Assembly (NCBI GenBank): GCA_963706715.1
Contig: CAVPNI010000002.1
Span: forward strand, 352,001-416,000
Source: an uncultured Verrucomicrobiae bacterium
GTDB lineage: Bacteria; Verrucomicrobiota; Verrucomicrobiia; Chthoniobacterales; Xiphinematobacteraceae
DNA length: 64,000 nucleotides
Direction of reading: 5' to 3'
The notes under the pieces were generated by a model. It was not told the DNA's origin. It ran no database searches and worked only from the letters and a program-made list of their open reading frames with translations. Both the position numbers and the translations under genes were made by a program. Shown piece after piece: positions 52,584 to 53,495 of this stretch (the first letter of the stretch is position 1; every line of letters begins with the position of its first letter).

Positions 52584-53495
52584 TTAAAAGAGGCATACGG
52601 CAGCGCTGGTAGTCCAGGCGATTGACAAAATTAATAATACAATTGCCGCCGATCGAGAGCAATCTTCACTTACCGACTCGCTCTCATAGAGGTGATCGAG
52701 CTTAGCAATTAAACTATTAGATTCCCACCTTTTCGCGCGTTCTACTGAATCAATCAGCAAAGAAATAAAAACAGTCCGTACCAACGTGGGGAGTTGTCGG
52801 AGCTTCACCCAGAAGTGACGACTCGATACTAATCCCCGAGCACAGCAACCGTTATGTACTTGTTTGAGTTGTTCACGGAAATCCGACCATAAATTCAAGC
52901 AAGAGATCACAATCGCCAGATTCCATCCGCGAGCACCGATTAGTCGAAACAGGTGAACCCATGGTTGAGGCGATAACGTCAAACCGGCGGTGCTGGTTTC
53001 CTTTAGGAGTCGCTGGCTACGCCAGATTCTTTTAGAAGCCTGACTGAAAAAAGATTTCATTTGCAATTTCCAGCTTCTAAAAGAAACCGACGAAGTCGGC
53101 GGAGGAAGTCCGTTGCAAGCAAAGTACTTTTTCATCCACGAATTTCTAAGAGAATCAGAGGAAGTAAAAAAAACAGACGAAGTCTGCGTCGCTAAAAACA
53201 TTGCACCTAGCAGAGCCAGTCGTGCGACAGCGAAAATAGCTGCACAAACGCCATTTGTGACGGTATAGCCATGTTCTGCTCGTAGCAGAAATCCCCAAAT
53301 AAAAATCAATGAAATAGCGATTGGTAAAAGTACCACATAGGAAAATCGGACGAATTGCCGTAGTCTTCCTTGGACACTCAGAACAACCATTACAAACAGA
53401 AGTCCAATCAGTAATAAAAAAGATCTATTTACTATAAAGGCACCTAAAGTGCCTATTAGACATGCTAATGCACGAATAGCTGTTGACATCACCAC
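52584..53495 (-). CDS. ECF T component (copy 2) with a 67-aa repeat-derived insertion
   Basis: Aligns to 24105-24824 on both sides of the insertion; CARG motif. Confidence 0.8.
   Translation of the reverse strand: MVMSTAIRALACLIGTLGAFIVNRSFLLLIGLLFVMVVLSVQGRLRQFVRFSYVVLLPIAISLIFIWGFLLRAEHGYTVTNGVCAAIFAVARLALLGAMFLATQTSSVFFTSSDSLRNSWMKKYFACNGLPPPTSSVSFRSWKLQMKSFFSQASKRIWRSQRLLKETSTAGLTLSPQPWVHLFRLIGARGWNLAIVISCLNLWSDFREQLKQVHNGCCARGLVSSRHFWVKLRQLPTLVRTVFISLLIDSVERAKRWESNSLIAKLDHLYESESVSEDCSRSAAIVLLILSIAWTTSAAVCLF
52984..53186. repeat. Compound family A element in frame inside ecfT
   Basis: Two left arms (52984, 53013) and three full or partial right arms (ending 53099, ~53165, 53186). Confidence 0.88.

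Follow-up and report, generated by a model that had tools for sequence, protein, structure and literature searches.

Rickettsia palindromic elements (RPEs) lie in frame in unrelated genes, to whose products they add peptide (Ogata et al. 2000, 2002, as summarised in PMC10969869 and PMC3733652), and nearly half of the 44 copies in R. conorii are placed within ORFs, where they encode a conserved peptide (PMC10969869). Intragenic clusters of GTAG/CGTC REPs of 43–82 aa, among them double insertions at close sites, are described in PMC3733652, many of them in the verrucomicrobium Opitutus terrae, and the bacterial MITEs RUP, ERIC and NEMIS form a further comparison set (PMC10969869). The phenomenon addressed below is thus already known, Verrucomicrobia included, and since the host gene looks like a relaxed spare copy the surprise is limited.

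The window analysed here is a stretch of 64,000 nucleotides from an uncultured Verrucomicrobiae bacterium. Its genome (G000) was compared with G001 and with the congeners G002 (73% complete) and G003 (a reduced 0.9-Mb genome). A dispersed repeat in G000, family A, has as its consensus an imperfect palindrome of 133–135 bp, with a 5-bp hairpin carrying a TNC loop at each end. Inside the hairpins lies a 13-bp inverted repeat, followed by AT-rich arms that flank a central CTACAA...TTGTAG. Searching with nhmmer gave 293 loci in G000 and no match in the reversed genome; 81 of these are family B only, leaving 212 family A loci. By blastn with one copy as query and at most five candidates scored per genome, family A occurs in 2 of 151 genomes of the order, and it was not found anywhere in the whole of G003. 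The reference copy in the window is:

39886..40018, no strand assigned: full-length family A copy, 133 bp, at a gene end

Compared by description, family A shares with RPEs a dispersed imperfect palindrome (~135–150 bp) that is lineage-restricted, lies in frame in unrelated genes and has no known mobilising enzyme beside it. In-frame inserts with empty orthologues were found in EcfT, a 1054-aa Fe-S protein, PrmA and a 353-aa ORF. A large share of copies in ORFs and a conserved peptide were not found: against a crude ORF set only 6 of the 212 loci are internal (71% of random points fall inside ORFs), while 49 extend across a 3′ end, 28 across a 5′ end, where many are probably start-site artefacts, and 129 are intergenic. 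Moreover, stop codons are frequent in the consensus, and different copies encode different peptides. Family A resembles GTAG REPs (PMC3733652) in being an inverted dimer with GTAG inside and in overlapping gene 3′ ends, but no conserved 6–13 bp stem-loop lies by its GTAG (90 arms fold at a mean of −1.6 against −1.1 kcal/mol when shuffled, with no such helix in RNAalifold), covarying 5-bp triloop hairpins lie at its outer ends instead, and no RAYT was found. With MITEs it shares short length, lack of coding content, high copy number, nesting and a 13-bp inverted repeat just inside its terminal hairpins. Target-site duplications were not seen at its 43 complete elements, and no IS with matching ends appeared among the repeat families and end pairs inspected; family B has both.

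A sequence-only reading of the window had proposed that a family A element is inserted in frame, in the manner of RPEs, into one of two EcfT genes. This was borne out, as the extra 201 bp is built from family A ends, and by description the insert may be regarded as a further case of a protein-coding palindrome as in Rickettsia. The two genes are:

24105..24824, minus strand: EcfT-like gene copy 1, empty at the insert site (ORF and alignment to copy 2)
52584..53495, minus strand: EcfT-like gene copy 2, host of the insert (303-aa ORF; family profile against EcfT 4hzu_T, E 3.5e-8)

Copy 2 reads FLAT-[Q104..A170]-GLTLSPQP where copy 1 reads FLAA-VLTLAPEQ. The protein alignment, which covers both flanks of the gap, confirms the proposed gain of 67 stop-free codons, a net 201 bp at 52986–53186; one of the six frames is open, and it is the frame in use. 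By the element's own ends the composite spans 52984–53186 (203 bp), with the last hairpin giving two bases of the Gly codon. The encoded peptide is hydrophilic and basic (11 K+R against 2 D+E). Copy 1 had been taken as an empty-site paralogue, and it does mark the site; being only 44–47% identical to copy 2 in protein sequence, however, it cannot stand for the pre-insertion allele. A third EcfT copy, on another contig (G000:C3:491652-492368), is 99% identical to copy 1.

Neither EcfT copy alone gives a Pfam match, CbiQ is matched by 42 of 114 family members, and it is the family profile that matches the solved EcfT 4hzu_T. The predicted model of copy 1 (pLDDT 93.7) has ECF transporter chains as its top seven Foldseek matches, and that of copy 2 has them as its top five, at E 0.1–0.2 only. 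In common with EcfT of group I ECF transporters (4hzu_T, 5d3m_D, 8bms_C, CbiQ) are five TM helices, three coupling helices, the ARG motif and the S-T-A operon; the proteins here differ in forming a divergent subfamily, and copy 2 in its 67-aa insert at the junction of TM4 and coupling helix 1. Six columns are at least 90% conserved across 116 sequences and all are kept in copy 2, including R220-G221 and R253, and with them the coupling arginines of A219-R220-G221 and R253.

Whether the insertion site lies in a cytoplasmic loop after the TM helix had been put forward as a question for structure prediction. Alignment and the copy-1 model place it in the last turn of TM4, with no free loop at the site: aligned to 4hzu_T, the insert separates the counterparts of L127 and T128, five residues ahead of the proline that leads into coupling helix 1, and it splits the stretch matching STLLTLST of that protein. 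PMC4820897 describes a TMH4 Ser/Thr stretch that contacts the S-component, and a membrane domain that hinges against the coupling domain. In the copy-2 model all copy-1 helices are kept, TM4 is extended by the insert residues QTSSV, and confidence is low in the insert only (blocks of pLDDT 45–71; pTM 0.65), within which two helices are predicted.

Homologues were collected with copy 1 as query, as a word-based search with copy 2 returned only itself. Of the 164 proteins obtained, those of 190–320 aa entered an alignment together with the three focal genes, after two duplicates had been dropped. The segment holds 27–31 aa in 140 of the 142 aligned homologues, against 96 in copy 2 and 69 in a gene of G002, so the idea that distant homologues carry a similar segment fails. 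Nineteen further loci comprised ten that are empty, the G002 gene itself and eight that were unreadable by the segment pattern. The orthologue is:

L007:105-947: G002 EcfT orthologue, with 40 extra codons (120 bp) and a family A profile match of E 1.3e-7 within the gene

In a tree built with the inserts removed, copy 2 and the G002 gene form a clade (support 100/99) with the insert-free P0020 as sister, and the branch of copy 2 since the split is short (0.15). The G002 insert has both family A ends, and its left junction lies at the same codon boundary as that of copy 2; the right junctions differ by one codon. Both insert lengths, 201 and 120 bp, are multiples of three and both inserts are stop-free, and they encode unrelated peptides. 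Their interiors are not specifically alike (the EcfT insert ranks 10th of the 293 loci against that of G002), their left hairpins are different family variants, and when the inner 87 bp is removed the remainder of the copy 2 insert still fails to align with that of G002. The only ATPase seen in G002, at 73% completeness, is beside copy 1, and there is no ATPase start in the 104 bp after the copy-2 gene. At one and the same junction, two well-separated species thus have inserts of 40 and 67 residues while their relatives all around are empty. This is a dated natural experiment, and the EcfT pair allows a test of how far the TM4-coupling junction tolerates large inserts and of repeat accretion under a frame filter.

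The insert in copy 2 is layered, as follows:

52984..53186, minus strand: whole family A composite, 203 bp (in-frame net gain of 201 bp, Q104–A170)
53165..53186, minus strand: outermost left end, a perfect 5–6 bp hairpin with TTC loop and T-run (−6.0 kcal/mol), terminator-like on the sense strand
53113..53168, minus strand: decayed second left end and arm (27-mer, 9.9 bits), aligning with G000:C2:434169-434343
53100..53112, minus strand: orphan terminal hairpin, by end-motif score
53013..53099, minus strand: complete inner family A element, 87 bp or 29 codons (end scores 46.7 and 30.1 bits)
52984..53012, minus strand: decayed outer right end, forming with the inner right end a doubled end common to three other loci

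Six family A end motifs lie in the insert (left ends at 53186, 53168 and 53099, the orphan hairpin at 53112, right ends at 53013 and 52984). They were scored with a profile built from 268 other family A ends, and each score is matched by at most about 1 in 100,000 of 200,000 background positions. The genome-wide nhmmer search covers the insert only at 52992–53100, the remainder being recognised through its end motifs and through its alignment to the intergenic locus G000:C2:434169-434343, which resembles the insert in layout (126 of 172 aligned columns the same). The best preserved layer is the inner element: its best arm agrees with the consensus at 49 of 56 bases, the region 53011–53101 has a fold z of −4.6, and elements of 87–89 bp recur among the 43 complete family A elements. 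The outermost left end shares its starting codon boundary with the G002 element and is almost undecayed. Repeated insertion into an existing copy had been suggested for this locus. The layering is real, with a complete 87-bp element among weaker ends, but the doubled end and a similar layout are met at three other loci (the doubled right end at G000 C1:315592, C2:434217 and C2:433163), and part of the composite probably arrived ready-made as one unit. Two or more ends are stacked on one side at 44 of 194 family A loci, and on both sides at five, so that, with the doubled end at those three loci, nesting appears to be a habit of the family. The sense strand of the insert also has two sites with a hairpin and T-run (53187–53173 and 53100–53086); both are weak, at −6 to −7.5 kcal/mol. 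Coupled translation would be expected to mask such terminator-like sites.

Copy 2 lies in an operon with genes for the other components of an ECF transporter, and copy 1 has an ATPase of its own:

22861..24144, minus strand: ECF ATPase of the copy-1 operon (Walker A GKST intact in close relatives)
51348..52577, minus strand: fused ECF ATPase of the copy-2 operon (Walker A S/T>R241, Q-loop Q>R280, N236S)
53503..54201, minus strand: ECF S-component-like gene, second of two (NF045596 E 1.3e-20, below cut-off); its true start is probably downstream of the listed TTG
54129..54788, minus strand: ECF S-component-like gene, first of two (NF045596 E 7.3e-35, below cut-off)

For the ATPases, 113 of 119 proteins, those under 470 aa, were aligned. 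The copy-2 enzyme has R241 and R280 at S/T and Q positions that are each invariant in 112 of 112 homologues; its combination of a GKR Walker A with the Q-loop Q>R change is unique among the 113 aligned proteins, and it has the longest ingroup branch (0.68, against a median of 0.16). Its first half has a degenerate Walker A, as is usual for its family, and taken with ABC enzymology this suggests that the substitutions strike the one working site. From its sequence the ATPase looks catalytically damaged and, given the loss of invariant Walker A and Q-loop residues, we read copy 2 as a relaxed spare copy.

All four genes of the copy-2 operon are intact, and the flanks of the insert are under purifying selection. 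Over 235 codons of EcfT flank, G000 and G002 differ with dN 0.32, dS 1.14 and dN/dS 0.28 (Nei-Gojobori; pN/pS 0.44, 95% interval 0.36–0.54), which answers the objection that the gene might be an old pseudogene; dN/dS is 0.19 for copy 1 and 0.12–0.18 for the S and A genes (0.14–0.16 for the S genes). In neutral simulation without indels, the reading frame of the whole gene survived 64 of 2000 runs at 0.1 changes per site and none of 2000 at 0.57. At 0.57 the two inserts alone remain open in 6% and 24% of runs, so their open frames by themselves are weak evidence. Departures at conserved positions number 13 of 68 in copy 2, 19 of 68 in the G002 gene and 1 of 69 in copy 1. The insert-free P0020 is equally divergent (18 of 73), indicating that relaxation predates the insert, and it is likely that this earlier relaxation allowed the insertion. 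The insert itself is likely old and tolerated.

On these sequence comparisons we favour, as a fairly probable account, that the nested family A cluster at the cytoplasmic end of TM4 in a spare EcfT goes back to one old in-frame insertion that was later remodelled, and that it is translated as a tolerated, poorly folded loop. A non-autonomous element with hairpin ends, moved in trans, would have landed between the FLAx and VLTL codons in the ancestor of G000 and G002. It would have survived as the frame was kept, the site lay past the membrane-spanning part of TM4 and the host was a redundant, fast-evolving paralogue. Later additions or replacements of family A DNA in G000, by insertion or recombination, may have come in part as a ready-made composite, with the frame filtering each step and the peptide tolerated rather than selected for its sequence. 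Against this account stand the unlike interiors, the different left hairpin variants, the two terminator-like sense-strand sites, the substituted ATPase with its long branch, the departures of copy 2 at conserved positions, and the failure to find a mobilising enzyme in these genomes. Alternatively, different family A donors, a ready-made composite in G000 and a single element in G002, may have struck the same codon boundary independently, as a hot spot. The likeness of the G000 layout to C2:434169-434343, the rank of only 10 of 293 for the interiors, the nearly undecayed outer left end despite a dS of 1.1 between the species, and the different REPs found near the same recB site in two Xanthomonas species (PMC3733652) fit such a history. 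We nonetheless judge two independent hits rather unlikely: with 6 of 212 loci within ORFs, two strikes on one junction require targeting to be strong, yet the only sign of a target motif is a G that precedes the hairpin at 148 of 269 ends. With so few internal copies, one ancestral insertion that was later overwritten is the simpler history. The prmA gene repeats the shared-site pattern, with an old shared signal and a newer element in G000, and we take it as a parallel for one old insertion, although its G002 signal is weak.

The operon in G000 might instead be a recent pseudo-operon, with EcfT broken or attenuated by the insert or by its latest layer and a frame that is still open for want of time. 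This seems improbable, as the four genes are intact, dN/dS is 0.28 in the EcfT flanks and 0.14–0.16 in the S genes, and the copy 2 branch since the split is short; divergence as great in the insert-free sister P0020 makes it older than the insert. The lost catalytic residues and long branch of the ATPase would suit decay, as would the split Ser/Thr stretch, of the kind reported in PMC4820897 to contact the S-component, and the absence of an ATPase start in the 104 bp after the G002 gene. Halted transcription at the two hairpin and T-run sites would suit it too, but these hairpins are weak. At the other extreme, the insert could have been domesticated as a new functional basic cytoplasmic segment, with T2 working with the copy-1 ATPase in trans. 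Its long retention in two species, its basic peptide with two predicted helices, and the ATPase-contacting arginines, kept though the operon ATPase is damaged in G000 or not adjacent in G002, are in line with a function. We regard domestication as very unlikely, as no peptide sequence is common to both inserts, the pLDDT of the insert is 45–71, and the missing ATPase of G002 may simply be unassembled in a genome 73% complete.

Dozens of G000 genes have had their C-termini rewritten by family A. Among 26 ORFs that have a G003 partner and are overlapped at the 3′ end, the element begins at least two codons before the projected stop in 22, yielding new protein tails such as TSSVSFRS. For comparison with the two stop-free EcfT inserts, only 8 of 270 frames are open at loci of at least 160 bp and 55 of 486 at loci of 100–160 bp. 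Convergent gene pairs show no excess of the repeat between them (28 of 121, against 233 of 1158), which leaves a family-wide terminator role unsupported. Head-to-tail arrays of single arms (88–100 bp period) or of the bare 27-bp end also occur:

L069 (G002:C176), G000:C3:724357-724885 and C1:46807-46994: head-to-tail family A arrays

No description of family A was found in the literature surveyed by listing.

The terminal hairpins show compensatory change. In 19 hand-picked copies, with the structure taken from the same alignment, 42 cells changed on both sides, against 14.5 when shuffled and at most 16 when slid, and 93% of the cells of the palindrome are paired. The loop is TTC in 203 of 256 well-paired ends and on the opposite strand forms C-GNA-G, a very stable DNA mini-hairpin (PMC13037366, PMC3201870). 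Mismatches show no clear G-U bias (57 against 49), which is compatible with recognition of the hairpins at the DNA level without proving it.

No target-site duplication was seen at the 43 complete elements, which do not differ from shuffled pairs, though old duplications may have decayed. Among 45 listed repeat families and 19 long-range end pairs in G000, inspected by eye, no IS has family A ends; such an IS may have been lost. RAYT and Y1 transposases were sought with PF01797 (0 of 5 genomes) and NF047646 (0 of 3), with positive controls that gave matches and with G002 at 73% completeness; PF07282 had no match in 3 genomes, nor had PF04986 in 3, its control likewise being without a match. 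Within G000, 47 filled/empty matches gave family B in 7 aligned pairs and no clean family A junction. IS630 was rejected as the mobiliser, since by eye IS630-like ends are unlike those of family A and duplications are lacking at the complete elements, and an intron or known RNA was rejected on a single chance-level Rfam match in 7 loci and an insert without splicing anatomy. We favour a hairpin-recognising single-strand mechanism, with a lost or distant enzyme and recombination among copies, over a lost DDE partner, while giving it about an even chance. A broader reading, which we hold to be doubtful, takes family A as an orphan element class with covarying GNA-triloop ends, whose enzyme, neither a DDE transposase nor a RAYT, leaves no target duplication. 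On this reading the EcfT copy would be translated, would have stayed at the TM4-coupling hinge from before the dS 1.1 split and would still be growing by accretion, with the T component using the ATPase of another operon. As a separate observation, the IS end GGCTCTATAAAAGAATT at G000:C4:24286-25137 and in related ISL3-like copies resembles the family A motif GGCTTCTAAAAGAA, in the opposite orientation relative to the element.

Other genes contain family A in frame:

13680..13770, minus strand: second in-frame insert in the window, ~33 aa, placed in the linker that precedes the Fe-S domain of the 1054-aa protein at 12895–16059 (minus strand)
L011:965-2032 (G000:C3:686488-686569): PrmA linker, with decayed family A ends in G000 and G002
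L010:1019-2080 (G000:C1:459410-459488): 353-aa ORF without Pfam match, with a family A piece in frame, ~19 aa longer than its G001 orthologue

The Fe-S protein, which we take to be ActB-like, lacks this insert in G001 and G002; the linker of those two is shorter than that of 11 other members of the order. In PrmA a newer 82-bp element is present in G000 only, and the old signal in G002 has an E of 0.004. Twelve element-ORF candidates comprised four family A cases in genes with shorter orthologues, two family B cases, two antisense artefacts, three without Pfam match and one weak 34-bp match. A core-gene survey of 951 best-hit pairs with G003, which skipped pairs under 40% identity, gave 49 insertions of at least 8 aa on the G000 side; its one family A match was rejected as an antisense ORF over an intergenic gap.

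Family B is an 81-bp MITE that has part of its arm in common with family A, ends that match a 1.1-kb IS, and duplications of ~9 bp; 81 and 9 make 90 bp, so the reading frame is kept. Family B is found in frame in a BioD-like gene, where it adds 30 aa at a site that is empty in G001 and G002, and also in a glycosyltransferase linker. Examples are:

19612–19690 (window), G000:C1:551716-551796 and C1:686760-686840: family B elements

Elsewhere in the window, a 657-aa ORF at 49382–51355 (plus strand) contains four near-identical 42-aa coiled-coil repeats, and its N-terminal 125 aa look unrelated to the remainder. At 26569–36293, RHS-repeat ORFs lie in pieces around an ISL3 transposase.
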